Source: Marsupella aquatica (Eukaryota > Plantae > Marchantiophyta). From it: 64,000 nt of DNA. Every line of letters starts with the position of its first letter. Position 1 is the stretch's first letter. Both the position numbers and the translations under genes were made by a program. Shown piece by piece: positions 17,599 through 64,000 of the stretch. Below the pieces are notes generated by a model, which had not been told where the DNA came from, made no database searches, and saw only the letters and a list, made by a program, of their open reading frames with translations. The stretch is from the NCBI GenBank assembly GCA_973895155.1, contig OZ316897.1, positions 22,977,455 through 23,041,454 of the forward strand. Direction: 5' to 3'.

Positions 17599-20499
17599 AT
17601 GGCGGACACAAGCAAGGAGGCGGGGGCGACCAAGCCGGGCCCGATGAATTTCGACGACTTGCAGAATGAGTCCGTGGACCTGGAGCACATCCCCGTGGAG
17701 GAGGTCTTTACGCAGCTCCGATGCACGAGGGAAGGGCTGTCCATGGAAGAAGGGGAGGCTCGGTTGCAGGTATTCGGCCCCAACAAGCTCCAGGAATTTT
17801 CGGAGAGTAAAATTCTGAAGTTTCTGGGGTTCATGTGGAATCCGTTGTCATGGGTCATGGAGGCTGCCGCAATCATGGCTATTGCGCTTGCTAATGGTCA
17901 GGGAGCGCCGCCCGATTGGCAAGATTTCATCGGTATCCTTACGTTGCTTCTTATCAATTCGACTATCAGTTTTATTGAGGAGAACAACGCAGGTAATGCT
18001 GCTGCTGCTTTGATGGCCCGGCTGGCGCCGAAGACGAAGGTGTTGCGAGATGGGAAGTGGGGAGAGCAGGACGCTTCCATTCTTGTCCCGGGAGACATCA
18101 TTAGCATCAAGTTGGGAGACATTGTCCCTGCTGATGCTCGTCTGCTCGAAGGTGATCCCTTAAAAATTGACCAGTCCTCTCTGACTGGAGAGTCGCTTCC
18201 TGTCACCAAGAAACCAGGCGATGAGGTTTTCTCAGGATCGACCTGCAAGCAAGGAGAAATTGAAGCCGTGGTCATTGCCACAGGGGTGCACACCTTCTTC
18301 GGCAAGGCTGCCTATCTCGTGGATAGTACCAAGTCCGTGGGGCATTTCCAAAAAGTCCTCTCAGCTATCGGAAGTTTCTGTATTTGCACAATTGCATTGG
18401 GCATTATTATTGAGCTTATCGTCATGTACCCCATCCAAAAACGACGGTATCGTGCAGGAATTAACAATCTTTTGGTTTTGCTTATCGGTGGTATCCCTAT
18501 TGCTATGCCCACTGTGCTCTCTGTTACCATGGCTATTGGCTCTCACAAGCTGTCCCAACAGGGTGCAATCACGAAGCGAATGACTGCTATCGAGGAGATG
18601 GCAGGTATGGATGTGCTTTGCAGTGACAAGACGGGTACTTTGACCCTGAACAAATTGTCTGTGGACAAGAATCTCATAGAAGTCTTCACGAAAGGTGTGG
18701 ATAGAGATTTCATCGTGCTGTCTGCAGCTAGAGCAGCGAGGACGGAGAATCAGGACGCCATTGACACTGCCATCATAGGCATGTTGGGAGATCCTAAAGA
18801 AGCTCGTGCAGGCATCCAGGAAGTTCACTTCCTGCCTTTCAATCCCGTCGACAAGCGCACGGCCATTACTTTCATCGATGAAGATGGGATCTGGCACAGG
18901 GCTAGCAAGGGGGCTCCGGAGGAGATCCTTCACTTGGCCCACAACGAGGCCGAAATTGCTGCCAGGGTGCACAGCGTGATTGATAAATTTGCTGAGCGTG
19001 GCCTTCGATCGCTCGCAGTCGCCAGGCAGCAAGTGCCAGAGAAAAGCAAGGAAAGTGACGGTGGTCCATGGGAGTTTCTCGGATTGCTACCCCTCTTCGA
19101 CCCCCCGCGACACGACAGTGCTGAAACCATTCGTGAGGCTCTCAAGTTGGGAGTCAATGTGAAGATGATTACAGGTGATCAGCTCGCCATTGCCAAAGAA
19201 ACGGGCCGAAGGCTTGGCATGGGTTCCAACATGTATCCGTCTGCAAGCTTGCTTGGAAAGAGCAAGGACGAATCTATCGAAGGACTCGACGTTGATGAGC
19301 TGATATACAAGGCCGACGGGTTTGCTGGCGTATTTCCGGAGCACAAGTACGAAATTGTGAAGCGACTCCAAGGCCAGAACCACATCTGTGGAATGACGGG
19401 AGATGGCGTGAATGATGCACCGGCGTTGAAGAAAGCAGATATAGGCATCGCTGTCTCCGATGCAACTGATGCAGCTCGTGGTGCTTCAGATATCGTGCTG
19501 ACGGAGCCTGGTCTCAGCGTCATCATCCACGCTGTGCTCACTAGTCGAGCCATCTTCCAGAGGATGAAGAACTACACCATCTACGCGGTGTCTATCACGG
19601 TCCGTATCGTCCTGGGCTTCCTCCTCCTGGCTCTGATTTGGAAGTTTGACTTCTCTCCATTTATGGTTCTGGTCATTGCCATCCTGAACGACGGTACGAT
19701 CATGACCATCTCCAAAGACAGAGTTGTTCCGTCTCCTCTCCCTGACAGTTGGAAGCTGAAAGAGATTTTTGCCACTGGAGTAGTGATTGGCACTTACTTG
19801 GCCTTGATGACGGTCCTTTTCTTCTGGGCAGCCGATAAGACTAACTTCTTCTCTAAGAGCTTTGGCGTGAGGTCAATCAGAGGTAGCAAGAGCCAACTCA
19901 CTGCCGCTGTGTATCTGCAAGTAAGTATCATCAGCCAAGCTTTGATCTTCGTGACTCGCTCGCGAGGCTTCTCTTACTTGGAACGCCCGGGCATGCTCCT
20001 GCTGCTTGCCTTCTGCCTCGCCCAACTTGTGGCAACCTTCCTGGCTGTCTATGCTGTTTGGGGATTTGCTACCATCAGAGGAGTGGGCTGGGGATGGGCT
20101 GGAGTCATCTGGCTGTACAGCATCGTCACATACATTCCTCTAGATTTCATTAAGTTTGCCATCTTCTACGTTTTGAGCGGAAGGGGTTGGGAGTTGCTGC
20201 TCGAGAACAAGACTGCGTTCACTTCGGAGAAGAACTTCGGAAAGGAGAACCGGGAGGCTCAGTGGGCACATGCACAGCGAACTCTTCACGGTCTGCACGA
20301 AGGTGGTGGAGAAGCACAAGGCTCGTCGCCATCCTTCCCACCAGCGAACGCGGATGTTCCTGCGATCGCGCAGTTGGCTCAGAGGCGTGCAGAAATTGCA
20401 AAGTTGAGGGAGCTTCACACTCTCAAGGGACATGTAGAATCTGTCGTAAAGATGAAAGGTTTGAATATGGAGCACATCCAGCAGTCATACACGGTATAG
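17599..20499 (+). CDS. AHA: Plasma-membrane H+-ATPase (P3A), 966 aa, single exon, penultimate-Thr type
   Basis: Motifs [19 protein letters not shown] and [20 protein letters not shown]; C-terminal 14-3-3 site QQSYTV. Confidence 0.97.
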
Positions 20500-26604: not shown

Positions 26605-26740
26605 GTGCTTAGCAAAAATAACATTCACAATGACAAACCCATGATCATCCAACACACAAGTAATCAACACCAAGAGATACATGGTTCACCTCAACATATA
26701 TAGGCTACGTCCATGGGAACACAAAAGAAGTCTACAACAC
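26605..26740 (-). mobile_element. Copia LTR fragment, same family as the solo LTR at 37061-37404
   Basis: Aligns with the reverse complement of about 37275-37404 (cccatga.catccaac.cacaa...gagatac.tg.ttcacctc...ggctacgtcca.gggaacac). Confidence 0.65.
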
Positions 26741-26783
26741 GTATTCGTAATACAAGATCTCACATAACATGCTTTCAGTTATG

Positions 26784-27590
26784 ATGTTGGGGGTCACAAC
26801 TATGACTACATCATTCTCCTGCACTCCCTTCAAAGTTTCCTTTATGTACTTCCAGTTTTCATAAGGTGCTTCTTTTATCCATAATCGATTAGGGCTACCA
26901 GAGCAGATGTTGGGGGTCACAACTATGACTACATCATTCTCCTGCACTCCCTTCAAAGTTTCCTTTATGTACTTCCAGTTTTCATATGGTGCTCCTTTTA
27001 TCCATAATCGATCAGGGCTACCAAAGCAGATTTTCACCGCGTTCTCCATGTAGGCAATGAAGCTCACGCGAACTACCATGTTGGGGGTCACAACTATGAC
27101 TACATCATTCTCCTGCACTCCCTTCAAAGTTTCCTTTATGTACTTCCAGTTTTCATATGGTGCTCCTTTTATCCATAATCGATCAGGGCTACCAAAGCAG
27201 ATTTTCACCGCGTTCTCCATGTAGGCAATGAAGCTCACGCGAACTACCATGTTGGGGGTCACAACTATGACTACATCATTCTCCTGCACTCCCTTCAAAG
27301 TTTCCTTTATGTACTTCCAGTTTTCATATGGTGCTCCTTTTATCCATAATCGATCAGGGCTACCAAAGCAGATTTTCACCGCGTTCTCCATGTAGGCAAT
27401 GAAGCTCACGCGAACTACCATGTTGGGGGTCACAACTATGACTACATCATTCTCCTGCACTCCCTTCAAAGTTTCCTTTATGTACTTCCAGTTTTCATAT
27501 GGTGCTCCTTTTATCCATAATCGATCAGGGCTACCAAAGCAGATTTTCACCGCGTTCTCCATGTAGGCAATGAAGCTCACGCGAACTACC
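26784..27590. repeat. Tandem array: four essentially identical 171-bp units plus one 123-bp truncated unit
   Basis: Units start at 26784 (short), 26907, 27078, 27249 and 27420. The array creates the repetitive 293-aa minus-strand ORF. Confidence 0.95.
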
Positions 27591-29018
27591 TGGAATTCAT
27601 ACTCACTACGCACTGTTTGAATTCATACTCTAGGTTGTTCGAGTGAGCTTCATTTCATACATGTAGAACCTGATGAAAATCTGCTATATCTACGCACTGT
27701 TCGAATTCAGGTATGAACAGTGCCTAGTAAGCTTAGCCTCTTCAAGAGTCAAGAAGTGCAATTCTCTGCACATGCAATTTTTGTGAAGTTTGCTCTCACC
27801 GACAAGCGCAACCTATTGTCGACTCCCGTGTCTGAATTGCAATTATCAAGGTGAATTGTATAGGGGGTTGTGCAGTTTTCACATTGTGCTCCACATTTCA
27901 ATCACTCAGTAAATAAAGAAAGCAAACTATGTGCAGTTTTCTGCAATTGCAACAATCTGTTTTCAATATTCGAAGTAAATTGTGCACTTCTCACTCTGTG
28001 AATTGCAACTAGCTGTAAGAGCAATTTCAAGTAAATGTTGCGCTTTTTGAGTATTGTCAGTACTCGGTGCAAGCTAGGGTACTAACAAATTTGCACTTAG
28101 CAAGGGATGAACAAATGACTGCACTAATGCCAGTCAGCATCTAAACCCGGTGTCCATTTAGGCCTTATGACCACATCTCGAGTCAAGAAACTCCAGACAT
28201 GTGATGCCACCCACATTCAATTAGTGCAGATTCCGACCATTCAAAGCTTAGATTACGCAAAAAGGAGATTGGGTGTTGTACACAGAAAAATTGATCCTAA
28301 TTTCTCAGCAGCAAAGGCCATCCCTAACTTTTTGAAAGCTCTACCTTGAGATCCGTCTATAGCCTAACTTCTCGGAGCGTATCGACGACGATGGCCTGAT
28401 AATGGTCGAACTACAACCTAAATATCATGTTACTCGATGCCTCCAGTCTAAGAACAGACTTCACTCACAGAGAACAATGGAACCTCGAGGAAATCCTATG
28501 TCAAATCGCAGATGCTCACATTCCGCGCTGGAGGCTGCTGTCTCCATCCGATTTGTGGGGGGATCAAATCGGTACAGAACCACTTGTGCACTGCCATGAA
28601 ATCTGTGCTAAATTCTGCTCCCAAGTCCTCTCTGGCATCTGTCTTGAAGTCTGCCCTAGTTCTGCACCGAAGCATGATCTGGAGGAAGCATTCAATTTGA
28701 ACATAGGATTCCCCAGTATCCCTAAAGTTGGTCCCCCATTGTGTCGCGATGGAGAATATCGAGAGAATGTATCTTGTGTCCCTCCCCGCGCAAATATTAA
28801 TAACCTACCATACACAATTTGCAGTTCACAATCAGAAAGAAAGGAATGAAGGTTTGACCTAAAACCGATTCACTCATTCACTAGAAAGGAAGTCTAAATG
28901 TACCTCTAATAAGGTGGCAAAATAGATATCGGCTGAGACCGGAAGACTAGATAAGGTAGAGTAGAAAAAATATGACAATCGATAAACTCGCCGAGTTACC
29001 TTTTTCGAGTGAGATCAA

Positions 29019-29477
29019 TCAGCGCAGATAGGCAGGGATCTTGATGCGAACGAACAGAATGCTCATGATGTAAGCAATCGAGACAAACGAAACTCCTGCG
29101 GCGACGAACGAAAGCCGCACACTGCGGGCGCGCGTCTTGTCCGTGGCCAGATCCAGCATCACAATTCCCACTCCGCCCAGCACAAACATGAAGCCGGACG
29201 AGAGCCCCTCGATGATGTACTGTCCATTGACGCGACCGGGAAGAAAAACCACAGGGCGGACCGCCCCTGTGACGGGATCCTGCGTGCTGCCAATGCTGGG
29301 CGGCTCAACGATCACATCATACACGAATCCGGAAATGACGAGGAAATACGAAACCAGGACGAGAGCGAAGACCGTCATCGCTGTGGGCAGCGATAGTGCC
29401 GGCACTTTGAGGCGCAATCGGGGCACTCGCAGTGCATGGTAGGGTAGCTGCAGCAGTAACAGCACCGGATCCGCCAT
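29019..29477 (-). CDS. OSTC: Oligosaccharyltransferase complex subunit OSTC/DC2, single exon
   Basis: SYFLVISGFVYDVIVEPPSIGS...RPVVFLPGRVNGQYIIEGLSSGFMF...KIPAYL. Likely start MADP at 29477. Confidence 0.93.
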   Translation of the reverse strand: MADPVLLLLQLPYHALRVPRLRLKVPALSLPTAMTVFALVLVSYFLVISGFVYDVIVEPPSIGSTQDPVTGAVRPVVFLPGRVNGQYIIEGLSSGFMFVLGGVGIVMLDLATDKTRARSVRLSFVAAGVSFVSIAYIMSILFVRIKIPAYLR

Positions 29478-29697
29478 CGCTGCTGGAACTTCGCTCTTCG
29501 TCTCTGAAAGTCGAGAGAGGCAGCTCTTGAATTCAATTTCTGAAACGGGAGTTTGCACCAACGAACGTTTTGCCTTACAAATCAATGGCTCCCTCTACTT
29601 GGGAAGGAAGCAGAGGATCACCGTTCTGCATCTTCAGTGAACAGAGGACGGCCGAGAAAACAGGAAGTGCGCATTAAGTCCACGCGAGTGAAGTGTA

Positions 29698-46296: not shown

Positions 46297-47232
46297 TCAT
46301 TCTTCATTCGTCGTTCGTTCTTCAATCGAACTGATGGACTCGGCCGATTCGCAGTACCTCCGTATAGAATCGCGGTTGTAAGAGAATGCCGGCAGAGCTG
46401 AGCTCTGTAAATCCTTGTGCTTCAAAATTCCCTTTGGCAGGCACTCGAGAACAAAGTCGAACAAAGTCGAACAGTTCTCAGATTACACCCGGGTATGACT
46501 ACCATGCAAGGAAACAGGAAAAAAAATGCTCGTAACAGGATTTTATTTGCTGTAAGAAGTTCTTTTGGCAAAATGGGCCCTTTTTCTCTCATATCAAGGT
46601 TCAGATGTAAACCCGCTAGTAATAACTTGCCTCGCTAGCCAAAAATGGCCGAGCAGTTTGTTTGGATTTATCAGAGAAGGTCCTGTAAGCTAAGCACAAT
46701 TCAGGCAAACATTACTAACGGTCTGGAGTTCTACTTTTCATTTCCAACTAGGGGATCGACATGGGCAATCATACACATGAGACCACCCCACTACAAACAT
46801 GATATTCCACCTTATGAGGGGAAAATAACCTCGCCATTCATAGTCTGATACAATCACACCTCATTCAATAATGTATATGATTCAGGCATCCTATTTCGTA
46901 TGCACAAGGAAAAACAACAAGAGTGTTTCTCTGAATAACCACCATTTGTTCAAATAATACACCATAAATGAACTCTTTTTAAAATGAAGGCTAGCAACCT
47001 CGCTAGCAAAAAACAACCAACATATGGTATTTTTACATATGCTTGAAAAGAACATTCCTTTATTAATGGAAATATCTATACTCACAACTTAGAAACAAAA
47101 TATTCTACTCCTTATGGTAATGATATCATGGTCAAAATATCTCACCCTCCGAGAAATCTAAATTAATTAAAACAAAATCCAACTTACTTCTCACTTAAAA
47201 ACAAAACTCTTTCCAAAGAGGACCTGTCCATC

Positions 47233-50200
47233 TCAAACCTCAATTGCCCGTTGAGTAAGATCGGAAATTTCAGCTATGGTTAAAATAGGCTGCTTAACAA
47301 TGTCATCACTATCCAAGTTCAAACGGGAACATTCTTAAAAATCCAAAGAATATGTTTGCAAGACATATAAGGTTTTCCATGCGAATGCCGCTTGAAGAAA
47401 TCTGGACAGGAACAACAAGGAAAAGAGCACAACTGAATCCAATATTTACTCGACTTACTTGGATTGTTTTCATGAGTAGCAATCAAAAACTGTGATCCCC
47501 ATCCGTTTCCTTGGACGACTTTCTCAGAAGCTACGACCCTCATTTGTTCGTCATTTGCAGCCTGAATCCTTTTCAAGAGTTCTCCTGTGAAGTTGAAACA
47601 TTGTCGAGTACCTTTTCCATTCCGTGTCTTCATTCGTCTATTTGGGTAGGTTACATCAACCTTCTCTGGAAAAGAGTTCACGTCAATGCGAAGTTCCACC
47701 CGGTTTGGAGGAGAAACAATGCCATCTGGTTGGCAGTCCATGTAGTAGAGACCCTCAATTTGAAAACCCATCTGAATCAAGAAGTTGATTTCAGGAGGTG
47801 TTAACCCTGTCCCTCGATGAACTTTCAGAGATTCAGGAACTAAAGGAAGTTGGGAAATCGACTTGCGACCCCTTGTTTTGTGACAGATATTGTTTGGACA
47901 GAAGTACAGAAGTTGAGTGTGCGGCGAAGTGATCCTCAAACCGTGGATGGCAACCCCAACAACACCGCATGATCTTTTGTGATACCCGACTTCCTTGATG
48001 AAGTTCCTACACTCGTCTCTTCCAGAAATGGTTCGATCCATAGACCCATTGCAGACTGGACCATTTCCGTGTCCACACCTCCGGAAGTGCCAAGTCCCAA
48101 ATGGTATGTCTACTTCATGTACAGCTGGTATTTGCCGAGGTGGAATATGAATCGGTTCCCCTGTACCAAGAGGAGATACAACTTCTTCATGCAACGGCCT
48201 TGGAATTTCTTGAGTGTCATCAATCGACATATCAGTGCCATTTTCTTCATTATCAGAAAGAAGGATCACAACGGATGGGTCCGAAACAACTTCTGGACCT
48301 CTAGACAACATTGAGTGATGGAGTATTCCGGAAGTTTCCAAAACATCTTGCTTATCGTCCACCACTTTCACACTTCCAAAATCCGAATATAGATTTCTAG
48401 GATGTACCCCCCTGGTCACTGCCTCGGTTTGCATTACCCTATCATGTCGATGAGAGTCTTCAGCACCAACTCTTGCGGAAGCAGGACCTTTTCGCTTTCC
48501 AGACTTTGTGCAAAGATCCCCGTGAAGTGGTTGGGTACGATGGAAATCGTACTTTGGAGACGACTCAAGCAAAAGATTTGATGCTTTCTCGAAAGCATCA
48601 AGAGATCCAAGAGTATCCGCATTCCGATATGCAAGTTCAAAAATGGTTGGTCCATGTCCCCTGTGACATCCCTCAATGTACGCAGCAAAGGCAGCAATCT
48701 GTCCACCAGCTCGATTTTGATCCAATTCACACGCTTCCAACAATCCAATCTTCCTCTTCATTTGACAGGCTCTCATTGACGCATGTACATATTCCGCTCC
48801 AGTACAATTTGGCATCAATGCTGACTCCTTTGTTGTTTGAGTCTGAAATCCAACACAAAAACAACATAAGATTGTGTATCATGATGAAAGGCCCCAAACA
48901 TAAACTCCCACTTAACCAGAATGCTAGCGACCTCGCTAGCCAACTCAAGTGGTTTACTTCACTTACCAGTCTGAAGTAGTTTCCCCATTGTCGCCAACGA
49001 ACAACCCACCAGGCAATCCAGCCTTGCAAAGCCCTCAATTTACCATGATGACAATTCCCAGATTTCCACCACTCTTGAATCTCGTCTGCCACTCTGTATG
49101 CCTCAACATATGTTGGAGCGTTCCGAAATTTCTCCCACATCTTGTAATGCTCTGAATGTTTCCCGTCACGAATTCCCTCCAATGTATGCCGTCTCAGAGA
49201 CTGAGACAAATGGAATGCATCACTATGTTCTCTTTCTGGGAACCGGACACCATCAAAGAAAACATTTCTCACAACAATCCATCCAGCTTCAGCATTGTCA
49301 GCCATAAAACCTGCTATCTCTACCTCACTAATACCATTCTCAGCAGCAACCTCCAACATTAAACGCCATGCAGTTTCCAAAGAGTCAGCATCCTCTGCTT
49401 TCAATTCACAAGTGAATATTGTACAAAGGGCACGGTAAGTGTGATCATAAACATGAGCACTGAAAGTGAGCCAACCTGTTGTTATCCTATGCATCACGTC
49501 AAAACTCACTTATGCCCCCTCTAAAGTTCCTCCTCTTTGCATGCGACGGAGAATGTCAACACCTGAACCTGGACCCTTGGTACTCATCTTGAACACATGA
49601 GCCCGGATGGACTTCCCAGCCTGTCCCGGGAACATGAACCTCTGAAGGAATGGAAATCTCACATGCATTTGCATCTCACGAAGTGAATCCAACTCACCTT
49701 TCTTGGGATTTCCTATCTTAACACTTCGAAAAATTGCATGGAACTTTGCCGGCGATGACACAACTTTCATTGAATTCCACAATTCAACCTCCTCTTCTTT
49801 TGAAAGATCTTGGCATGACTCGGGATGCAAAAGCGATATCAATGTACCTATCAAAATGTTCTTCACCCTGGAGGGTGTTGCTAGTGGATGAGCTATCTGA
49901 ACGCCTTGAATAACTTCTTCTGCTTTCTTCTTGGCAACTCGACACTTCCCTGTTCGAACTGGATGATCGTGAAATCCCATATGCACAGCAAGTCGAGACA
50001 TATGCTTTGATATATGTGAATCCAAGGCCGGTTTAGCGTACACATAAAACATCTTAGCAGGACAGGGCCTTACACAAAAAGGTCTTTCGTCACAAAACCC
50101 ACAAACCAAACCTCCTTCGGGAACAAGGGAACCCGGCTGGAAGACATCTGTAAGAAGAGACCTTCCTGGGAATGCAGCTTCATTCTTGGCCCCAGTCTCT

Positions 50201-51039
50201 TTGAATTTTGAACAATTCAAATTTTGACATTCAATAACACCTGTGCAGCGGACCTTGAAAACAGACCAGTGGTCGCGTGGCTTCAGATTAGCAGATGTGG
50301 TGACCAATCTTGTCCATGGGTATCCATCATTATCACGGTCCATGTCTAGAAGCCCTTGCCCTCGACCAAATCTAGATTCCACCGGAGGAAGCTCATAGAC
50401 CTTGTCTCCATTGTAACTTGTGGGAAGTCGGTCAACTTGGAAATCAACCCACGCAACATCTCTTCTGAATCTAGCAAGCTCACTGGCCCCAGTAATCTTC
50501 AAGAATGCTTCAAATGCACCAATTCTGTAGACCTTGGTCAATGTATCAGAACCCACAGCCTTAGGTTCAACCACGTCCTCCTTCAAGTTGTCCACCACAA
50601 TTGTTGACCCCATAACCGACACCTCATCATTAATTCCTATAGACTCTAGAGGGTCCAGGTCCACAAAAACCCGTTCATGAATCATCTTAGAATTCCGTCC
50701 AAGGAAAGGGATCCCTGGAACATCTGCAAATGACTTGGGATCTTCATCCTTTCCGGAAACAAGCTCAACAATATCTCCAGACTCGACCTCCCAAACTCTT
50801 CCTCCATCAAGACTTCTTGGAATGAATTCATCCTTTCGAGCACCATGAACAGAAACAAGAAAAAATAGCTTTGAGATGTAGTCACCATTCGTGATACCAA
50901 ATCTCGTCAAGAGGAATGACTCAGTCACCGGGGTGATCTTCCTCATGGAAGACACCTCCAAGTTAACAACATCACCATTGCTCCTTCGCCAGAATATGAC
51001 CACCAAAGCCATCGAATGGAGATGAAGAAACATTACCAA
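47233..51039 (-). pseudogene. MULE transposase: GCM/WRKY-like Zn domain + DDE + SWIM finger
   Basis: CTGVIECQNLNC...CGFC..C...C.A...HMGFHDHPV; SFD...GFMADNA...DAFH...WW..RW..WG; intron 48966-48843; NCTGAEYVH; SWIM CSCPDF...CKHILW. Stop at 49510-49512 and frameshift near 47325. Confidence 0.85.
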
Positions 51040-52198
51040 AGGTAGTGGTATAGAAGATATGTAAGAAAGCCCAAAACTACATCTAACGGGATTAAATGTG
51101 AATGTTGAGGGAATGTTGAATAAACGACAAAATGTCCAACGGATACATTAAATCAAGGAGATAGAATATAGCTAGCGATGTCGCTAGCTAAAACCTCTCA
51201 ATTTTTATTAACCAGTAGACATGTCATATTCTATATAGAGAGATAATTTAGAGACTATTTAGAGACCATTTAGGGACATGAAGGGTACAATTTAAGGGAA
51301 TATTCTGTCAAGCCCTTCATTTTGGGGAAAAGACAAAGGAAATATAGAAGATTAGTTTTAAAGACTACTTTTTGTCAAACTTCACAAACCAAAACCTTCA
51401 ACTCAGAAAGAATGTATTGCCAGCGATCTCGCCTGCAAAAATCGAGACGGTCCTAGAGGATCCATTGAGTCAATGACTAATACATAAAGTTGTCAAATAA
51501 ACCCTAGTCATCAGGTCAGCGATGTCGCTAGCAAAATCACCAATATTCATCTTATCTCTTTGATGTAGTAAAGGTCAGTATCCCTAATATTTTGGTGTCT
51601 TATTCAATACCCTAGTTAAGCTAGCGATCTCGCTACCCATAATGGATGACCAGGAAACAACGAGTTAACAGATATTTTTCCATCTCACATCTTCAATGTT
51701 TATACTTTCTTTAGACAAATGTTGGTTTGGGGAAAGGCATTTAGAGTCCCTCAAAATTAAACAAGAATAAGAAACTCTCAAGATACCCTAAAACATTCTT
51801 GTGTGTTAATATATTACCGTTGAAAATCTGATGTCCATTTGGATAGCGATCTCGCTGGCTAAAATCTCAAACTTTAATGACCAGGAAATATATGGGTATG
51901 GTTTAGTCTTAAGTCTTTCCCAACGGAAACCCAACGGTAAAATAGAAGGTTGGTCAACGTTAAAATTGATAGTTTCCCGTTAACAACCTCTAAAGGGAAC
52001 GTTGCATGGGGTTAATGTTGAATATTATGGTTATTCTAGTTGCTCAGCGTATTCATGACGTTCCAACTTAAACCGATGATGTTCAAAAGAGACTTGCATT
52101 TTTTATTGCCATCTGTGACGGACGTTGTATTATTCCCTGTCAATGTCAGATATCCAGTTCACTGTATGTGGATTACTTAGGATTCTCCCTCTAATCCA

Positions 52199-52311
52199 AC
52201 TTTGGATTCCCAGCTCGGTCCTTCGCTAATCTCGATTGTCCTCCTCTGTTTTACTTTGGATACTCTCTCGAATGAGACTTTGGATACTCCTTCTAATCTG
52301 ACTTTGGATAC
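52199..52311 (+). repeat. actttggat(ac) x4 just upstream of the ParB-MTase start codon
   Basis: Starts at 52199, 52253, 52277 and 52301 (24-bp spacing for the last three). Confidence 0.75.
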
Positions 52312-52383
52312 CAATTAGAAGCCACCGTACCCGCTGCAACGCTTTGTTCGTGTGTTACTCCCTTCCATTTTCTTTATCAGCCG

Positions 52384-55300
52384 ATGGCAAATTTTGCATC
52401 ACCAGAGTCTATCTCTTCTCAAGCTTCACAGTCTGCAGCTTCTCAGCGTCGAGAGACAAGGTCTTCGACTACCAACAAGGCACTAGCTTCGGGTTTGAAG
52501 ACACCTCGTCGAAGGAAACTTGTTGATCCGATGGAGATTTTGCCACCACCGATGGAGTCTTATAAGTCGGAACCATTCTTCGTGGTGATCAACCGTCACC
52601 TCTACCACTTTGGGCCAAATGAATTTGGGTATCCCCTTGTTCCCCCTCGAATTCCACTATGTAGGATGCGAAACATGCAGCTCGTCAGGTCGCTGCAGAC
52701 TGATTCCAATGCAATCGAAACCCTCAAGAATGAGTTTCGAGCTCAGGGTTACATTGAGGACGCGCCCAGATTTTACGTTCAGATGACGAACGAGAATGGT
52801 GAGGTTCAGTTCATCAACGACACCATTTGAATGTGTTGGGATCCGATATGGGCGTTGCAGAACGAAGATTTTGAGAGAGAGTGTGATTCTCATCCAGACT
52901 TTGCTGTATTGAAGGACAAAATGTTTTATGTTTTTGACGGTAATCATCGTCTATACTCGTGGAATCTGCTGGCCATCGAGAATCCACATGATATCAAATA
53001 TCATCCTCGTGTTGTCACCAAGATTTTCAAAGGGGAGAAAGACACGTTTGTGCAGATTGAATCTGCAATGCATGCCCTGAATCGGTGAGCATCGGATCTG
53101 TTCTTATTGATTCAATGTTGTCTATCACTTCACATTTCGGGTTTTCTTATCTCTGATTTGTACTCGAAACATCTTTGATACTTTTGTTCATTGGCAGGCT
53201 CACTCAATGCCACGTTGAGAATTCATGGGTCCTTGAAGCAGATCGTGTCCAGAAGATACTGAACACGGACTTGTCGGTCTACAAGGATTTGATTGATGCA
53301 GACAATTTCAAGTTGTTCCAACAAAAGATGCAAAATGTGAAGAAACCCTCTTGGTATTCAAAAAATATGACCCTCGATGCTTGTATTTACATTCTTTCCG
53401 CTGCAAATATAGCTTCCCAGACTGCGGATTTGTAGAAGAAGTTTTCTCTCAAGGAGGATCTTGGCGAACCTTTGTCAAAAGCTGCGAAGGACACTGCTCT
53501 ATGAGAAATGATGAAGGAGCAACTATCTGATTGGAATGTTAAAGTTCCAAAAATTGCTCCTCTTCTCAATCCCGAATTCAGGGATTTCTTTCAGAAATGT
53601 GTGGAGATGCATAACTACTGTGAGAAAGAACGGAAGGAAGCACAAAGGATTGATGATAAAGGGAGAGGCAATGTCTCATGTGGTCTTGATCGAGCGAGGC
53701 TTTTCACCGGGGTAACATCTCTCAGCCCACTACTTCGTTGCAATCTACTTGAAGCGCAGTGCAAGCCCGAGCTACGAAAGCAATATTTTCATCCTGGGCA
53801 ATTCTCAGATAGTGAGACTAAACTCTGGCTGCACAGGTGGGCTACGTGGGAACAAGTAGAGTCGATTGCTAGATCTCTTTTGTCCGAAGCTGTTTCAGAA
53901 ATGATTCTAAGTGTCCCTAAATCTCGAGTTCTTTCAGCCTCAGAGAAGAACAAGGCGTCACTTGTTCTTGATATTAGTGATGAGTTTGAGGACTTTTTGC
54001 AGCGAGTTAAATCCAGGTTTTTCAAGAGCATTAGGGCCCCAAAAGTAGGGGAAAAGATAGATATTGTCGCATTTTGGAGAAGGGCAAAAAGATATGTATA
54101 CCGATTTTTTGTTGACCGGGAGGTGGCCAATAGAGCATTCTGGTGGTGTTACCCCGCGTGTTTCTCCCAGTGGGCCGAATACGTGACTGACGATTTAGGA
54201 AATCAAAACTGTGGTGACTACTCAATGTACCCTTGTGAAGACGTTGAGCCACTCCGGAAGATGAGTGAATGGGAGGTTTTACATTGTCCATGGTACTTAG
54301 ATTCAGAGAATTGGTCACTGACATTTGATGGGACAAAGAAGCTTGCTTTGCAGAAGATAAATCGTGGGTTAGTCCCAGAGTTTTATATATCTGAATCAAA
54401 AATGCCCAGCCTCGAAGCAGTGCAGGCCGGGTGTGAGGCTATGGAGCAGGCTTGCCTTGGTGTTGCACCAATTGTTGATAGAAGCCGTTCCTGAAAATTG
54501 AAGAAGGACGTTGTGAAGGAGGTGTCAAAAGAGACCTCTCAGGTTTCCGGCAGGAGAAGTAAGTGTGCTCATCATCCTAACTCTCGATCGGCTTCTAATG
54601 TTTAGTCCTTTCTTTGCAAATTCTTGTTTTCTGAGGTTTTTGGTTATCTTTTTTTTCCAGAAAAGAGAAGATCGACTGGTTCAGAGAGTGTCCAGACCGT
54701 GCAGAATCGTGGGCGACAGGATCCCATTGAACCTGAATCTCCGGATTTTGATATTGTGACAAAACCGATTGGTGATAAGCTTAAGAAGAAGAGAAAGGTT
54801 TAAGTGCTCTCAGATTCAGAAGATGAGGAAGGGTCGATCAGTGAGGGTGTGATGAGGATATGTGGACTTCAACTGGATGGGAATCGACATTTCTTTGCCA
54901 GGAGTAATTTGCATTTCACAACAGACTCAATTGCTTTGAAGAAAGTTTGACCTTCGTGGATGGGGGAGGGGGATCGCTGGCTGAGTGAGATTTTGAGTTC
55001 TTCAGAACATCCGAACCCCCTAAGAATCAATGGCAAGCCTTACACCGGTACCAGTGCCCATCTTGGGTTCATTGCTCTTCCTACAGGACTAAGGCCTCGT
55101 GTTACTGATGTGAAGGTGCCAAAATGGAATGTTTGGATGGAGAAACTTCCTTATTACTTCTTCGGAGTCATGAGGCCGATGTTGTCCGATGATGGATATG
55201 TGGTTGTTCTCCATAGTGGAGAATTTAACCACATGAAGCAGATTTTTGCTGCCATTGAGCAGAAGAATAAATTCAAACATCTTTGCCAGTACCACGTTTT

Positions 55301-56421
55301 GTTGAGTAGCCCAATGTGGATGCCAGACATCGATGTTGAGGTGAGATGTCAAGATTTTTGGTTTAAATTATAGGTCTTTTTTGCCAGTGAGGTTGCTAGC
55401 CTTCACAGCCTCAGTATTTGACATATTTTTTGCTTTTCCAGGTTTGCAATCTCAGTCTGGATGTGTTTTGTCAAACTGAATTCGATGGGAAGATCCCCAA
55501 GGACCCGAAGTACATCCCCATGGCAACATCTGAGGATGCATCTCATAAGAAGTTACTCAGTCTTTGTTACCCGAAAATCAATGTCAGGACTGAGTTAGCT
55601 TTTGCAGGGTCTTGTCGATTATCTGTTGGATTCATGCAGGCAGTGATGGAGCTTTTGACAAAGCCAAGAGACATTGTGCTAGATTGGAATGTTGGAGATG
55701 GAAGTTCATTCCGAGCGGGGGAACTCTCCGGGAGGTTTGTAGTTGGGGTTGAGGATAGGGAATTTCTCCATGATGCTGCACAGGAGTCGTTGAAGTTGGT
55801 TTTGGATCGTCATAAGAAAATTGAAGACATCACTATTGGGATGGGTACTGAGTCATTGGAGGACGGGGATTCAGATGACGAGTTTACTCTTGCTGGATCG
55901 AGTGGTGGAAGAACGAAAGTTCCTGCTCCGGATGGGAAAGATGACCACGATGAATTTGACCTGGAGTAATGTACTTATCCTGTCTCATACCAAATCCAAC
56001 TGTGTTTAGAAAGTAAAGTTCAGTTTTTTCCACCTTGAATTAATCGGCTGCTGATTTTGCTTTTTATAGTGATCGACGTGTAGATTGGTTCTCGGAGGAG
56101 AGATTTTGGCTCCGAAAGGAAATTGAGGGCGCTTTTCTCTTCTCGCCTGAGAAATCGTTCACTCTACCTTGCTATGCGGAGAAGTCTGCAATTGAAGCAG
56201 ATGACACTTTTGTTATGACTTGGGAAGGAAAAGGTCGGAGGTCAGATCGTGGCGCTCGGAGGAATTTGTACAGCCTTCCTTTCATTGATGTTGAGGCGGG
56301 TCATGTGAAGAGATATGTGGACGAGTCGGCTGAGTCAACTGATAGGGAGTTTAGCAGTGAGGAAATCAATAGTAGTAGTATGAATGATTTGGAATCAGGT
56401 GAAAGTCATTCCACAAATTAG
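52384..56421 (+). pseudogene. MULE cargo gene: ParB/Srx-like domain + beta-class amino (N4C/N6A) DNA methyltransferase-like domain, ~1200 codons, 5 exons
   Basis: Exons 52384-53084, 53198-54558, 54661-55340, 55442-55965 and 56070-56421 splice in frame. Motifs: FYVFDGNHRL; KKKRKV; LGFIALPTG..P.WN...LSDDGYVVV; FMQAVMELLTKPRDIVLDWNVGDGSSFRAGELSGRFVVGVE. Six in-frame stops. Confidence 0.75.
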
Positions 56422-58037
56422 TGTGAAGTTTTATTCTGCTTGTGTGTCCCCTGAATGGGAAGCAGCAGAATAAGCTTGATCTCTTTAGCCATTCTGGAGA
56501 AATTACTCTCAGTTTCAATAAAGTAATCGAGGAAGCCAATTTTGATGAGTGGGAAATGTCTGTAACTTGAGTATAGTCTTTATTGGTTTTCTTGTTTTGA
56601 TCAGTTTTGTGTATGATGGAAGGCTAGCGCCCTCGCTTACAACCCATGTGCATTATGAAAGTTTTGACAAATGCTTAGTTTGGTTGTGTGAAATCCTTTC
56701 GAGGCACTAAATATGCCATTCAAAAAATGACATATCCCTCGCTAGCAAAGCTCATGTCGCTAGCAATTTCTCCTGTTTCCTTGCATGGTACAAACCCCCA
56801 TTACACCCAAACCATCCCCTTACACCAGATCGTCAGTCGATCGTCAGTCGAAGGGTCTACAGCCGCTAGAGCACTAGAAAAGGCAGACACTGTCTCTTTA
56901 TAAACGCCAATTGGGGCCTAGGCTTGTACTGTAGATTGGGGCCTAGGCTTCTAGAGTGAATACATTTTTGGAGTTTTGGGACCTAGTCAGGCCAATTGGG
57001 GCCTACTGTAGTCTTCTAGAGTGAAGACACTTTTGGGGTTTTGGGGCATAGTCTTCTAGAGTGAAATCTCTAAAGTGAAGATTCGAGACACCAACTTCAT
57101 GGCTCATCATGTGTATGAGAAAACTCATCAATGTATGAATGATAATCATGCATGTTTTTTGTGATGATTTTTATTTACATTAAAAAAAATCTTATCATGT
57201 GAATAAGAAAGCTCATGAATATATGTTAAATGATGATATTTGTATTACAAAATGAACTCTAATGCCCCACCATAACATATGTACATAGAAAGAGGGATGT
57301 GCATAGAAAAGAGTATGATATGTTCTGTATGATTATTAAAATGATGACATGCATGATGGATTTTTATCATTTCATTAACAATCAAAAAATGTGAATAAAA
57401 ATTATATTTTGGTGACATATTTATTGTACTCCCTGCTATTCAGGTTCAAAGAACAGGTAGTGAGGGCTAGTAGATAACAATGTCAAGGACCAAAAAGTGT
57501 CAAACTTGGAAACACTATCCCACGGGTCAAGAGACCCAATAACCAATTTTTTCCAACATTGCCTGACTTGCTCATGAATGTTATTTTCATAGGTAGTTAT
57601 TTCATTTTAAATCTTGCTTTAGGGTAGTCCATGCTTTGTAGTGCCTGACCTTTTGAATATACACAAACACCCTTAAAAGATTTCCTTCCCTTTTATTCTT
57701 TTATATGAATTCATATGTAAAGTACCTTCACCTCTGTCCCAATGCCTTGGCGTTTCTTCATTGAGAGGGGCTATGTCTTCTACTAGCTTCAAACCCTTGA
57801 CCTTCACTCCCCAGCCTACTCCTTCAACCATTGGGCTGAGGACTAATGCTGACATTCAATGGTTATTAAGTGTATTTAGTAACTTCATTCAAATTTCTGT
57901 TATTTTCCATTTTCATTGTTTTTCTTGATATATAGCTGGCCCATTCTATGACATGGCTATTTTGTTTTATTTGAGCTATTAAGAAATAGTATTTATTGTT
58001 GCATGATTGTTAAAGTGACAAAACAAAATCTCTATAT

Positions 58038-61000
58038 TGTTAGACTCTACCTGGTGACCGGACGACCGGACCAGCCAGTCACCGGACCGGCACCACTACA
58101 TGTACCAAACACCATAGACTATACATCATTCATTCTATTCTCACACGTTATCAGCACGAAGCCTCAGCCAGCGGAGCGAGATAGAAAGGAGAAGACCAGG
58201 GAAGATTGAATTTTTTTTTGAATGGGGGATCGAGAGGACGACTTTAACATCTAAGGAGCACAAAGACATTGGATCCAAGATCAAAGAGTCGAGGGCAGAA
58301 AAACAAATTTCGAGAGAAAGGTCGAGCACTATAAAGGCATCGAGAATTGAAGGGAACAAAAATGAAGATGGATGTGAGCACTAGAAAATGAAGATTGCAG
58401 ATTGCACGAAGCAACAGATTCGTGAAGGGAGCCAAAGCTTTATCATCTAAGACTCGGCCTCGAAAGATCGCAGCACAAAATGAGAAGATAGAGTAAGCCA
58501 TTGATGCAGAAGAGAGCACTTCAGGGAATTTCCAAGTAGACACTATCGTAAGGGCAGAAGGACCAGGCCGAGATCGAGAAATAAAGAGAAAACAAGAAGA
58601 CAGCCCTGGAGGAAGCATCGACCTACGCCCTTTCAATTGCTCTTTGATAAGGAACATCGAATAGAAAATAAGACCGTCCTCACTTTGAAAATTGAAGATC
58701 GGGAAGACTGGAAAACATTGAACGTGCCAGGCAGGCAGGCAAGCGTTTTGATACGAACGAAAGACATCGGACCTAGGTGGAGAGGCAAAGAAAAACAAAA
58801 GGGAAGCATCGATCAGGAGCAGAAGGGCAGCATCGATCGAGGACCTACACAAGATGCTGTAAAGCGAAATTGACAGAAGACCAATAAGAGGCATAAGGCA
58901 ACAACGATAGAAGGCAATGAAGGGAGAAGCCCAAGAGTAGAGGTCGCGAGCGGACACAAGCAAAAAAGCACAAGAACAACCCAAACACATCGAGAGAACG
59001 TCGAAGAAAACTCAAACCACTAAGTGCACGCTCCATAACCGCACACAACCGCAAAACCCTCTTTAACTGCAAAATCCGTCAAATAGATTTCAGTTACAAA
59101 GGAAAAGTTGCACTTAACCATAACTGCAAAACCTAAGCGCACATCCGCATAACTGCACACCGTAACCAAGAAAATTTTACTTAAAACCTAAATCCTTAGT
59201 GCAAACCCTAAAATTGAATTCCGGATTTGCATGCTCTCTCCTCCCAGCACCACCTTGCATGCCGCAGAAATGTGCTTTGTCGTTTCTTACTATACTTACT
59301 AGTATATAAGCCTCAACTACCATTAAAATGAATCAAGCCATCAACCCAATGACCAACCTAGAGAAATTAACATTTCCAGCCCTAGACATCGATGGTAGCA
59401 ACTACCTGGAATGGTCAATGAATCTCAGAGAGAACCTAACCTCGCTAACCCTACTCCTAGCCATAGGGATGGCTCAACCTATACTAGCTGGCGAACCCCA
59501 ACCAGACCCGTTAACTAAAGCCAATGAATCGAAGGCCCTAGTATTCCTGAGACGCCATATCCATAGATTCCTACAAAGACAATACATGCACCTCTCAACC
59601 CCTCGTGAACTATGGACAGCGCTCCAAACCCGATTCGACCACCAAAAATTTGTTGAACTACCTAAAGCCAGGCAAGACTGGCTAAACCTGTGAGTCCAAG
59701 ACTTTACCTCTATTTCAGCCTACAATAGCGAACTCTTTAGAATAACATCAACCCTCGCACTATGTGGCGAGCCGGTCACAGACAAGGATCTGCTAGAGAA
59801 GACCTTGTCGACATTTCATTCATCGAATGTGTGGCTATCAACACAGTATCGAAACATGAAGTTCGGGCAATACTCCGAGCTCATAGCCCACCTCCTAGTC
59901 ACCGAAAGAAACCAAGAACTTCTTTTCGTAAACTCTAGAAAACAACCTGCGGGCACAATGCCCTCAGGACAACAGAATGAAACCCATAACATAGAAAATG
60001 ATGAACCCTCCACATCGAGGCAAGACATTAAATGCACTAAGAATAGCAACCGGAGAAACACCCACAACAGGGGAAGTTTCTATAACCAACGTCCACAATA
60101 TAACTCCCAACGGACCTTTAGAGGACGTGGAGGACGAGAAGGACGTGGAGGACGTGGAGGACGTGGTGGACGAGAAGGACGTGGAGGACGTGGAGGACGA
60201 GGAGGACGTGGTGGACATGGCGGACGCGGAGGACGCAGCGGTGGTAGAACATATAACAACAACCGTAGAAATGATTGGTCACAATCCCGACAACAACGGG
60301 AACGACCGAAATGCCATGAATGTGGCATGACAAACCACCTAGCGAGAAACTGTAGAATCCCGCAACACCTTAGAGATCTATACCAACGGTCCATCCAGGA
60401 TGGACAAACCTCTAGGACACCACCCCGTGAAACCCACGGGGCGTTCATGGAGTCTAGTGACCCATTCCAAGACTTTTCAGACCTACCTGTCCAACCCGAG
60501 GCACACTTAGTGGCAAGTAGCTCCACTACACCAGATTTAAATAGCCCAAGCACATGTATTATCGACAGTGCGACCACGCATACTATCCTCGGGGATAGGC
60601 ACCTTTTCCACAAGATTACACCCTCACGTAGATCCTTGACCACTATAAATGGCCCTAGCCAAATAGAAGAAGGCTTCGGCCCAGCTTCCATTAGACTACC
60701 GCAGGGTACAGCGATTCACATAGAATCTGTCATTTTCGCCCCGAACGCAACCCGTAATCTCCTCAGTTTTAGAGATATACGAGCAAATGGACTACATGTC
60801 CAGACGGGCGATACAAGAGACCAGGAAGTGATACACTTGGTTGAAAATACCCCTACGGGGAAAATCATTAAAGAAACACTTTTCTCGTACCCCTACGGGT
60901 TTTATGTAACTCATATTGAATGCCTGCATAACAATGCCAACACAAGCGAATTGCATGCGCTTTGGCATGCACGCCTCGGCCACCCCGGCCAATCAATGCT

Positions 61001-64000
61001 AACCAAAATCATTAAGAATTCAAGAGGCATTCCAATCAATACACGCCACATTCCAGCAAGCACCCCATGCACTGCATGCTCACGCGGCAAACTAATAACA
61101 AGGCCCACGGCATCAAAATTGCCAACTAAAATACCCCAATTCTTGGAAATCATCCATGCAGATGTTTGCAGAACAATTAACCCACCGAGCGGACCATTCC
61201 GCTACTTTATGGTATTAATCGACGCATCAACTAAATGGTCAAATGTGACACTGCTTTCAACGAGGAACATGGTTATGCCTCGCATTTTGGCGCAAATCTT
61301 GCACATGAAAGCACAATTCCCAGATCACCCCATTAAGACACTAAGGGTGGACAATGCAGGGGAATTCACATCCAAAACATTTGATAACTTGTGTACATCA
61401 CTTGGCATCGACGTACAATATCTTGTACCTCACGTGCATTTTCAGAACGGATTAGCTGAAGCAGTCATTAAACGCCTTCAGTTAATTGCATGCCCATTAT
61501 TAATGCAGTCAAAACTCCCCGTCTCAGCATGGGGACATGCCATATTACAGGCTAATGCATTAATCCAATACCGCCCATCGGCTTTTAATACCTATAGCCC
61601 ATACCAAATTGCTAATGGTATCAAACCTGACCTATCACATCTTCGTTCATTTGGATGTCAAGTAATGGTCCCCATTACTCTACCCAAACGAACCAAGATG
61701 GGACCCCAACGACAGTTGGGGATATACATCGGATTCGACTCTCCGTCCATAATTCGATATATGGAGCCAACAACTGGCGACGTTTTTAAATCCAGATTTC
61801 TAGATTGCCATTTTGATGAACACATTTACCCACCATTAATAACCCCTGAACACCCACAACCACTTTTGGAGTGGGAAAGACACTCACCATTTTGGCAAGA
61901 CCTTAGAACCAATCAAGGGGAGAAAGAAGTTCAACGAATTTTACAACTCCACAAGATTGTGGAAGAACTTCCCGATACTTTCGTTGATACATCACAAGTT
62001 AGCTGCTCACATATTCTAGCTGCGAGAGCACCTGCTCGCATTGAATTATCAAGTGAGCCAGCAAGTACATCCCAGCCTCGTGCCAAACGAGGTAGACCTT
62101 TGGGATCAAAAGATAAACAACCACGAAGGCGTGGTTCATCTATACCACCTTCACCTGATGTCGATCATAACGAATCTACATCCCATATCTCTATCCACTA
62201 CGCACACACAGGTGCGATGTGGGATAGAAATACTACTTCAATAGATGATGCTTTTGCATTAATGGTGGCAACACATATCACTGACGATACACCCGAACTA
62301 ATATCTATCTTAGAATGCCAAAAGAGACCAGATTGGCCTGAATGGCAAAAAGCTATAAATGGAGAATTAGATTCCCTACTTAGCAGACACACTTTTGGCC
62401 CAGTCGAGCCAACACCGCAAAATGTACACCTAATTGGCTACAAGTGGACATTTGTCCGCAAAAGAAATGATAAAGGCCAAGTTGTATGCTATAAAGCACG
62501 TCTGGTAGGGAAAGGATTTACCCAACAACCGGGAATTCATTACGATGAAACCTATTCACCGGTTATGGATAGCACAACATTCCGATACCTTATCGGATTT
62601 GCCATTTTCCATAAACTACAAATGCGACAACTGGATGTTGCGACCGCATATCTATATGGAACTTTAGACACTTGTCTGTACATGCGATCACCTCCTGAGT
62701 TGGAGCAACGTCGCCGAGCTTTAGCTCAAGGCGCTAAATCGCATATCCCATATTTACATAAGATTATAAAACAATTATCTCAAGTTACACCTCATGTGTC
62801 ATCTACACATGTAACTCATAATAACGACACCGCTGTGTCAACCGTACGGAATACTCGCTGTGGACTAGCTATCCGCGTGTTGAAGGCATTATATGGCCTG
62901 AAACAAAGTGGCAGAGTATGGTATCAAAGATTTACTAATGAAATGATTGCCATGGGTTTTTCCCATGATGCCATTACACCATGTTTATTTATTAAACATG
63001 TGGATGATGAATATGTCATCGTTTCTATTTATGTTGATGACTTAAATATATTTGGGACACCCCAACTTACAGAAGACACTATTACCAGTCTTAAATCCAC
63101 ATTTGAGATGAAAGACCTTGGACATACAAACTTTTGCTTAGGCTTACAACTAGAGATCCTACCCACTGGCATGATGCTCCATCAGACAACACAAATTGAA
63201 AAAATCCTAAAACAGTTCAATATGAACCTAGCACACCCATTGACGTCACCAATGGTTGTACGTTCATTAGAAAACAATACTGATGTTTTTCGCAAGCGCA
63301 AAGAACATGAACCACTATTAGGACCAGAAACTCCATATCTTTCTGCGATAGGAACATTAATGTATCTAGCAAATCAGACACAACCAGACATTGCATTTAC
63401 AATTAACTTACTAGCTAGACATAGTGCAACTCCCACAGCCAAACACTAGAACAGAGTTAAGCACTATTTAGGTATCTGCGTGGCACCACCGATACAGGGT
63501 TATTTTACCCATTCGGTGCAAACCACGAACTCATAGGATACGCGGATGCCGGATATCTTTCTGACACTGACACCGCAAAATCGTACCCCCTTTTCTTGGA
63601 AAAGCGTGAAACAGACCCTAACAGCAACGTCATCGAATCACTTAGAAATCTTAGCTCTACATGAGGCTAGTCGTGAAGCCGTTTGGTTACGATCCTTTAT
63701 AAATCACATCAACACCAAATGCGGCCTACCACCACTAACGAAGCCTACTAACATTTTTGAGGATAATGTAGCATGTATACAGTAGATCACGAAAGGATTC
63801 ATCAAAGGCGATCGCGTGAAGCATATAGCTCCAAAGTTTTTCTACACCCACGAGTTACATGGAAAAGAGATCAACATTTTGCAGATTTCAAGTGCAGACA
63901 ACTGTGCGGATCTCTTCACCAAATCACTATTGCCATCAATTCATCACCGACACTGCCAAGCGATTAGACTACGGAGCGTGCGACGCATGATGACCGTGGA
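58038..64000 (+). mobile_element. Ty1/Copia LTR retrotransposon (Bianca-like), 3' end outside the window
   Basis: Probable short 5' LTR 58038-58145 (TG..CA), then PBS CGTTATCAGCACG at 58146, then gag-pol. Confidence 0.88.
59328..63990 (+). pseudogene. Copia gag-pol (gag, CCHC, protease, integrase, RT, RNase H), disrupted
   Basis: KLTFPALDIDGSNYLEW; CHECGMTNHLARNC; IIDSATTH; WHARLGHPG; RVDNAGEF; YKARLV; YGLKQSGR; YVDDL; IFEDN. Stops at 59691 and 63447, plus frameshifts and stops in RNase H. Confidence 0.93.

Follow-up and report, generated by a model that had tools for sequence, protein, structure and literature searches.

The DNA analyzed here is a stretch of 64,000 nucleotides from the liverwort Marsupella aquatica (GenBank assembly GCA_973895155.1, contig OZ316897.1, positions 22,977,455 to 23,041,454 of the forward strand), referred to below as the window. 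It carries a Mutator-like element (MULE), a DNA transposon in which a minus-strand transposase gene and a plus-strand cargo gene diverge (Table 1). The element is a dead copy, with one stop in the transposase and six in the cargo. An 18-bp two-fold palindrome is scattered through its non-coding DNA in nine copies, and on balance these are likely to be candidate family-specific loading sites of the element's own ParB-like cargo protein. The MULE anatomy had been described by an earlier reading of the bare letters (the sequence-only reading), and it held: besides the two divergent genes, the element has a 9-bp target-site duplication (TSD), within the 8–11 bp of MULEs, and terminal inverted repeats (TIRs) of about 33 bp, which have the G-rich ends of MULEs though they are short for one.

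A dispersed palindrome in the Mutator-like element

The motif has the layout GCTAGCGA-NN-TCGCTAGC, that is, two arms around a 2-bp spacer. A search of the whole window with GCTAGCGANNTCGCTAGC, allowing up to 3 mismatches, gave 9 matches, all within the MULE, against a chance expectation of 0.06 on average and 2 at most in 100 dinucleotide shuffles. All nine coordinates in the sequence-only reading were right, including those of the perfect copies at 48923 and 51171. Its remark that none lies outside the element was likewise borne out for the other 54 kb of the window, the range to which the statement applies: 9 of 9 palindromes and all 10 exact half-sites of the window are inside, and no palindrome copy was found near host genes in those 54 kb. 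With one mismatch allowed, 26 of 55 half-sites fell inside the element, and the GCTAGC word alone occurs 9 times outside it.

Similar results were obtained by two other scans. When a half-site matrix was combined with the 2-bp spacer, the nine copies scored 20.5–29.4 bits, values that are circular because the matrix was built from these very copies, and the best score outside the element was 13.4 bits; spacers of 0, 1, 3, and 4 with the same half-site matrix produced nothing above 12.2 bits. In an unbiased scan for spaced 5-mer palindromes, AGCGA-NN-TCGCT ranked first in the element with 5 copies, whereas the best count was 1–2 in five of the six other window blocks, 4 in the remaining one, which overlaps a tandem array, and 3 at most in 30 Markov simulations. 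None of the 18 arms departs from the consensus at the first G or at the G of AGCG, and the core AGCGA is almost as constant, while positions 2–3 vary. A/T makes up 79% of the 5 bp that adjoin each arm on its outer side, compared with 62% in the element's non-coding DNA.

The sites avoid coding DNA. With the nine full sites and three lone half-sites taken together, 12 of 12 lie in the non-coding 33% of the element (P about 2e-6). As the sequence-only reading had stated, five full sites lie between the divergent genes, one in the 124-bp intron at 48843–48966 and one in the 101-bp intron at 55341–55441; the others are subterminal, and two of the four introns are without any site. Seven of the nine full sites are >2 kb from either end. 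Half-sites near both TIRs had also been reported. They are indeed found near both ends, at 142 bp from the left end and at 36 and 54 bp from the right end, but they lie outside the TIRs, both of which were inspected and hold no half-site, and they are not symmetric, as all share one reading direction on the plus strand with no mirror symmetry about the ends. A longer TIR that would include these half-sites was considered and rejected, the subterminal resemblance being not significant (P 0.09).

Conservation of the motif in the element and its family

The 30-bp flanks of the nine copies share a mean identity of 32%, compared with 30% for random non-coding pairs. Since the flanks are at background identity, it is the motif itself that has been kept, not a recently duplicated block. 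Recent tandem duplication as the whole explanation was ruled out by these unrelated flanks and by the tandem arrays of the window, none of which contains the motif. A stretch of 29 bp is 93% identical between copies 46990 and 55383, and the motif was therefore spread by copying at some time. The CG dinucleotide is retained in 15 of the 18 arms though the element's observed/expected CG ratio is 0.61, a retention that is partly circular because the copies were chosen by similarity.

Parts of the element are present in public contigs of three organisms from four studies. In four public runs, contigs span the element end to end with many diverged variants, and the element is therefore a decayed member of a multi-copy family. 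The summed contig depth, which is no copy number, was mostly several- to tens-fold above that of the left flank. Over 51130–51900, divided into 30 bins, the 9 bins with motif sequence had ~3.2-fold higher summed depth in runs X3 and X4, and the signal ranked 1 of 30 circular shifts in each of them. Among the 40 differences shown of the 136 in this interval, the motifs contain 1 where 4.7 would be expected (P 0.044); this one yields a half-site variant that is present elsewhere in the element. In the contigs over the whole element, motif copies account for 2 of the 40 rows shown out of 1,722: at 55388 the consensus base is found in all four runs, and the variant at 56638 is the half-site form seen at 51515. 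These data provide moderate, though not conclusive, footprint evidence that the motif is conserved in related copies. The palindromes are real, specific to the element within the 64-kb window, and probably functional in the active past of the family.

Two other intergenic repeats were observed between the divergent genes. A 24-bp unit with ACTTTGGAT cores recurs in 2.5 copies at 52175–52312, plus one upstream, and an 11-bp unit at 51232–51277 lies under a depth peak without a palindrome; the two may represent a second class of binding site.

The ParB-like and methylase-like cargo protein

The cargo gene has four exons with about 1,089 codons and six premature stops, and the splice phases of the exons, worked out by hand, agree. 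An exhaustive protein search with exon 1 yielded 256 proteins at E ≤0.001; the named homologs among the matches listed were from the liverwort Riccia and the fern Adiantum. An intact homolog is the Riccia protein P0157 of 1,207 aa, in which all four exons have a match, in the same order and at 25–32% identity. Conserved across the family are IPLCR..VR, GY, DGNHR, and an Asn further downstream. A GxxR-type P motif is conserved, with G126 in 100 and R129 in 90 of about 107 rows, and a box-III-like Asn in 80 of 86 rows. In a putative mapping, these conserved residues fit the ParB boxes I–III, as labeled in PMC12704722. A fern member of the family, P0096 of Adiantum capillus-veneris, carries an annotated C-terminal NIF/FCP1-like phosphatase domain (E 2e-12), which may reflect either a genuine exchange of domains or an erroneous fusion in the gene model.

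An AlphaFold model of residues 1–551 of the Riccia homolog P0159, based on 109 aligned rows, had a predicted local distance difference test (pLDDT) value of 81. The best solved structures matched by Foldseek were Noc, ParB, and sulfiredoxin (Srx), none below E 0.001, and the viral matches were ParB-like, with a best E of 2.5e-3. In a second-look alignment, which re-scored the Foldseek matches and was not an open structure search, model residues 21–392 were laid on nearly full ParB/Noc constructs of nucleotide-binding domain (NBD) plus helix-turn-helix (HTH) domain. The top seven had Z values of 7.9–8.6, and the root-mean-square deviation (rmsd) was 5.5–6.2 for six of them and 11.4 for one (7bm8: Z 8.6, rmsd 6.2, 178/180 residues; 6sdk: Z 8.3, rmsd 6.0, 199/199 residues). 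PadC and Srx, both matched over the NBD alone, scored lower (7.1 and 5.7), the best unrelated fold reached Z 4.7, and the top 13 rows were all of the ParB family. The model's counterpart of exon 2 aligns to the ParB HTH domain with insertions. The model thus predicts an N-terminal ParB/Srx fold with the GxxR P motif. A ParB-type DNA-reading region with insertions is probable in the cargo protein, because the model aligns to whole NBD-plus-HTH constructs above NBD-only and unrelated folds. The ParB-like nature of the cargo, claimed earlier from the letters, was accordingly upheld, with a probable HTH region, at the level of a homolog model alignment. The nucleotide of ParB folds can be CTP, ATP, or GTP, and the specificity is unpredictable from sequence or models (PMC12704722).

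The methyltransferase-like C-terminus, another part of the earlier claim, was recovered in weak profile matches to PF01555 (E 3e-4, below the cut-off), NF010253 (E 7e-5), and phrog_3008; the methyltransferase profile matches were all below curated cut-offs where such are given. Motif IV precedes the motif I of S-adenosylmethionine (SAM) binding, a permuted order as in beta-class N4C/N6A DNA methyltransferases. The catalytic motif of that class is [DNSH]PP[YFW] (PMC4738411), whereas this position reads DLPT, DMPS, DMPT, DFPI, or DVPF in homologs and ALPT in the window, being non-canonical in 6 of the 6 homolog rows that cover it. Because of this departure, catalytic activity appears doubtful, and the cargo tail can be called methylase-like only. 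The closest named Atlas clusters to a full-length homolog were phage fusions of ParB_N and N6_N4 methylase (0.82–0.83), which are leads only. Word-based protein searches for both cargo domains gave no match, PDB sequence searches gave nothing useful, and a single-sequence model of the methylase-like domain had a pLDDT of 33 and was not used.

The transposase and relatives of the element

The transposase gene has two exons with about 1,196 codons and one premature stop, and a large, cysteine/histidine-rich N-terminal region. Three homologs were found (P0002–P0004), with 37–42% identity over the searched N-terminal part, and in them the similarity is lost where the intron sits. What we take to be the conserved D..D..DxxH is visible in the protein, and exon 2 presumably contains the region of the third catalytic residue and a C-terminal CxC..CxH SWIM-like motif. 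The Pfam search of the transposase gave no MULE match. In the Atlas, homolog P0002 was nearest to MULE (PF10551) clusters with a score of 0.88, a lead only, and 9 of its 10 best named matches belonged to one clan.

Related loci were found in 1 of 266 candidate stretches from metagenomes (L015), in 0 of 27 from viral contigs, and in 0 of 45 from prokaryote genomes. L015 is 3.5 kb long with only the transposase in view, and contains no motif copy and no repeated palindrome, but it is too short for a fair control. The exact motif occurs in viral contigs at 14 loci with one site each; this was rejected as chance-like, with no relation by tblastn or blastn.

Table 1. Coordinates of the Mutator-like element, its genes and its palindromic sites within the window
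Feature	Position	Strand	Remarks
Mutator-like DNA transposon	46491..56799	.	10,309 bp; two divergent genes; dead copy; delimited by TSD and TIR
Left TSD	46482..46490	+	ATTACACCC; 9 bp
Right TSD	56800..56808	+	ATTACACCC; 9 bp; identical to left
Left TIR	46491..46523	+	about 33 bp; begins GGG; 24-bp core 96% complementary
Right TIR	56767..56799	-	about 33 bp
Transposase exon 1	48967..51033	-	689 codons; premature stop at codon 508
Transposase intron	48843..48966	-	124 bp; GT-AG; phase 0
Transposase exon 2	47319..48842	-	
Cargo exon 1	52384..53084	+	predicted ParB/Srx-fold domain; DGNHR motif; one premature stop
Cargo exon 2	53198..54558	+	helical region; three premature stops
Cargo exon 3	54661..55340	+	linker and N-terminal half of methyltransferase-like domain; two premature stops
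Cargo intron	55341..55441		101 bp
Cargo exon 4	55442..55969	+	putative SAM-binding half of N6/N4 DNA methyltransferase-like domain
Palindrome	46990..47007	.	1 mismatch; downstream of transposase gene
Palindrome	48923..48940	.	0 mismatches (perfect arms); within transposase intron
Palindrome	51171..51188	.	0 mismatches (perfect arms); intergenic
Palindrome	51419..51436	.	3 mismatches; intergenic
Palindrome	51515..51532	.	2 mismatches; intergenic
Palindrome	51620..51637	.	1 mismatch; intergenic
Palindrome	51842..51859	.	2 mismatches; intergenic
Palindrome	55383..55400	.	3 mismatches; within cargo intron
Palindrome	56623..56640	.	3 mismatches; right subterminal region
Half-site TCGCTAGC	46632..46639	+	exact; a 2-mismatch half-site at 46613, 19 bp upstream
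Two half-sites	56739..56764	+	both exact; 18 bp apart; just inside right TIR

Other features of the window

Left of the element, a 466-aa open reading frame (ORF) of unknown kind lies at 4611–6011 (plus strand). Three in-line ORF pieces (528, 316, and 406 aa), broken by stops, lie at 7410–11190 (minus strand) and read like a Helitron Rep-helicase, with putative HxH and PIF1-like motifs. The intronless 970-aa ORF at 17587–20499 (plus strand) looks like a plasma-membrane P-type H+-ATPase; plant homologs of this protein usually have many introns. A tandem array of a roughly 171-bp unit at 26732–27622 (minus strand) is open as a 296-aa repeat ORF, and another intronless ORF at 29019–29594 (minus strand) resembles what we take to be the oligosaccharyltransferase subunit OSTC/DC2. 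Right of the element, contig depth reached 8,116 and 12,637 in two runs at 57008–57418, a short high-copy AT-rich repeat, and a decayed Copia-like retrotransposon with gag-, integrase- and reverse-transcriptase-like stretches, recognized by eye, lies at 58060–64000 (plus strand) and runs off the window.

Discussion

The system described here is probably one in which an accessory protein of a transposon recognizes sites in its own element, in a ParB–parS-like form. It resembles VANC/VANDAL of Arabidopsis in combining a Mutator-like element, an accessory gene, and a family-specific short motif in non-coding DNA (PMC5735166). VANC21 has been shown experimentally to bind introns, intergenic and terminal non-coding DNA (PMC5735166), and the VANC-like placement that the sequence-only reading proposed is what was found for the palindromes. 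However, VANC motifs are 8–9-bp words in tandem repeats, and 'palindrom' occurs 0 times in the available main text of that paper (PMC5735166), whereas the site here is a dispersed 18-bp two-fold one with unrelated flanks and no tandem repeats, and the cargo has ParB- and methylase-like matches. The parS-like part of the proposal agrees with the two-fold site and its fixed 2-bp spacer. Clustered palindromic sites of 16–18 bp are of the ParB–parS type, and bacterial ParB–parS and Noc with its Noc-binding site (NBS) share with our element the predicted ParB-CTPase fold, a probable HTH region and a palindromic site of similar length (PMC12704722). Here, in contrast, there is no ParA, the HTH region carries large insertions, and the methylase-like tail replaces the dimerization domain (PMC12704722); the host is a eukaryote, and no segregation role is apparent. 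Because the element has only two genes, this is not a ParABS system but at most its ParB–parS part. TnpA of Spm/CACTA and the AtMu1 transposase provide a further likeness, as element-encoded proteins with clustered family-specific motifs that relieve silencing, although their motifs cluster at termini or TIRs, while most full sites here are internal (10.64898/2026.08.24.746577).

For transposons of red and brown algae, binding of a ParB-like accessory protein to its own element has already been published as a hypothesis. The red algal Plavaka PAG3 has a ParB-like accessory protein and inverted repeats proposed as its own binding sites, but differs in its 2-oxoglutarate (2OG) oxygenase fusion, its tandem repeat arrays beside the gene and its EnSpm/Plavaka host element (bioRxiv 10.1101/2025.02.11.637652). 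Sola1-1_Ec32 of Ectocarpus encodes, opposite to its transposase, a ParB-like plus N4C/N6A methyltransferase protein of about 1,100 aa, which was proposed to bind and modify its own element (PMC12477816). This likeness is one of description, and Sola1-1_Ec32 differs in belonging to the Sola superfamily of a brown alga, with no binding motif mentioned in the available text (PMC12477816). In the accessible parts of the algal-transposon papers, a dispersed target motif is not mentioned, nor is a test. In the literature covered, which leaves out most subscription papers, a palindrome array in a land-plant ParB-carrying transposon was not found. The self-recognition idea of the earlier reading was partly supported, in anatomy, fold and site placement, but is less new than it had implied.

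If the palindromes are loading sites of the cargo protein, a cargo dimer would read both arms, in the way in which ParB and Noc recognize their own palindromes. The five sites that lie between the divergent promoters would be the main points of loading, with those in introns and near the termini as additional ones, and once it has bound its nucleotide, the protein might spread from there along the element. Such loading may serve, in a VANC/VANDAL-like manner, to keep family copies transcribable or marked as self against host 5-methylcytosine (5mC) silencing, with the methylase-like domain acting as a writer of N4-methylcytosine (4mC) or N6-methyladenine (6mA), or as a mere base-binding shield. 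This copy could respond only to protein supplied in trans, because of its one transposase stop and six cargo stops.

Several points weigh against the cargo protein as the reader of these sites. Run X1 lacks the depth signal (ratio 1.24, rank 3/30) and run X2 has a flat profile; the two runs that show it, X3 and X4, come from a single study, neighboring bins are non-independent, and depth is only a rough stand-in. Another depth peak, at 51234–51285, contains no motif, and the variant count rests on 40 of the 136 differences in the interval. On the protein side, the top Z of 8.6 is barely above the tool's 'common' level, with an rmsd of 5.5–6 Å and Foldseek E values >0.001, the model is that of a liverwort homolog ~30% identical to the window protein, and neither Pfam ParB_N nor HTH_ParB is among the 25 of 42 families shown for the 109 homologs. 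Among the stretches screened for relatives, no sister element was long enough to follow motif–cargo covariation. Finally, no accessory protein is needed by the AtMu1c transposase, which activates its own family and binds to it in a sequence-specific manner (10.64898/2026.08.24.746577).

That last precedent favors the element's transposase as the protein bound by the palindromes, for self-activation of both promoters or for bringing the ends together, an alternative already raised by the sequence-only reading. At the right end, two exact half-sites directly adjoin the TIR, and a faint likeness to them is seen in the left subterminal DNA, but that resemblance is not significant (P 0.09), the end-proximal half-sites point in the same direction at both ends instead of facing inwards, and the full sites are mostly far from the ends. 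The absence of half-sites from either TIR weakens this explanation further, as AtMu1 transposase peaks in chromatin immunoprecipitation (ChIP) lie at TIRs (10.64898/2026.08.24.746577). The distant relative L015, which is too short for a fair control, has neither the motif nor a repeated palindrome. We thus keep the transposase at a lower weight and regard it as an unlikely reader.

Alternatively, the motif could be the recognition or methylation target of the methylase-like domain, a restriction-modification-like self-mark for which the ParB part would be only regulatory. The phage methylase fusions among the Atlas leads, and the GCTAGC or AGCGA word of each arm, in which A and C are available as targets, speak for this, but the non-canonical motif IV of all covering homologs and of this copy (ALPT) and the occurrences of GCTAGC outside the element do not. 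An 18-bp two-fold site with a fixed spacer suits a dimeric HTH reader better than a 4–8-bp methylase site, and this textbook expectation also counts against such a target, which we consider very unlikely. Binding of the sites by a transcription or chromatin factor of the host, which the element would exploit, is highly improbable: 5 of the 9 copies do lie in the shared promoter region, but copies also occur in introns and 3′ regions and none near host genes in the other 54 kb, and the element itself encodes a plausible palindrome reader. Neutral relics of old short duplications or of hairpin-templated repair are scarcely credible as the source of the copies. The 29 bp shared by 46990 and 55383 and the 18-bp distance between the right-end half-sites point to copying that spread the motif, but the cores are kept in flanks at background identity, coding DNA is strictly avoided, the spacer is fixed, and related copies show footprint-like conservation.

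Among these explanations, loading of the ParB-like cargo protein is the one that we favor. A bolder extension, which we put forward only tentatively and would not expect to hold in full, is that land-plant transposons carry a nucleotide-gated ParB sliding clamp that loads at parS-like sites in promoters and introns, spreads with its methylase-like domain, and marks or shields its own family, with a site spelling specific to each family. If true, eukaryotes would possess a set of mutually orthogonal modules with which chromatin could be painted in a programmable way. A ParB clamp at work on eukaryotic chromatin would be a novelty, and the protein–site pair of a single family would be a possible epigenome-editing tool. 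Family-specific escape from host silencing has been shown only for a few Arabidopsis systems (VANC, TnpA, and AtMu1). The element described here contributes a defined 18-bp sequence with known positions, along with structural support for a land-plant reader of the ParB type, and the proposal made for algal transposons can therefore be put to a direct binding test.

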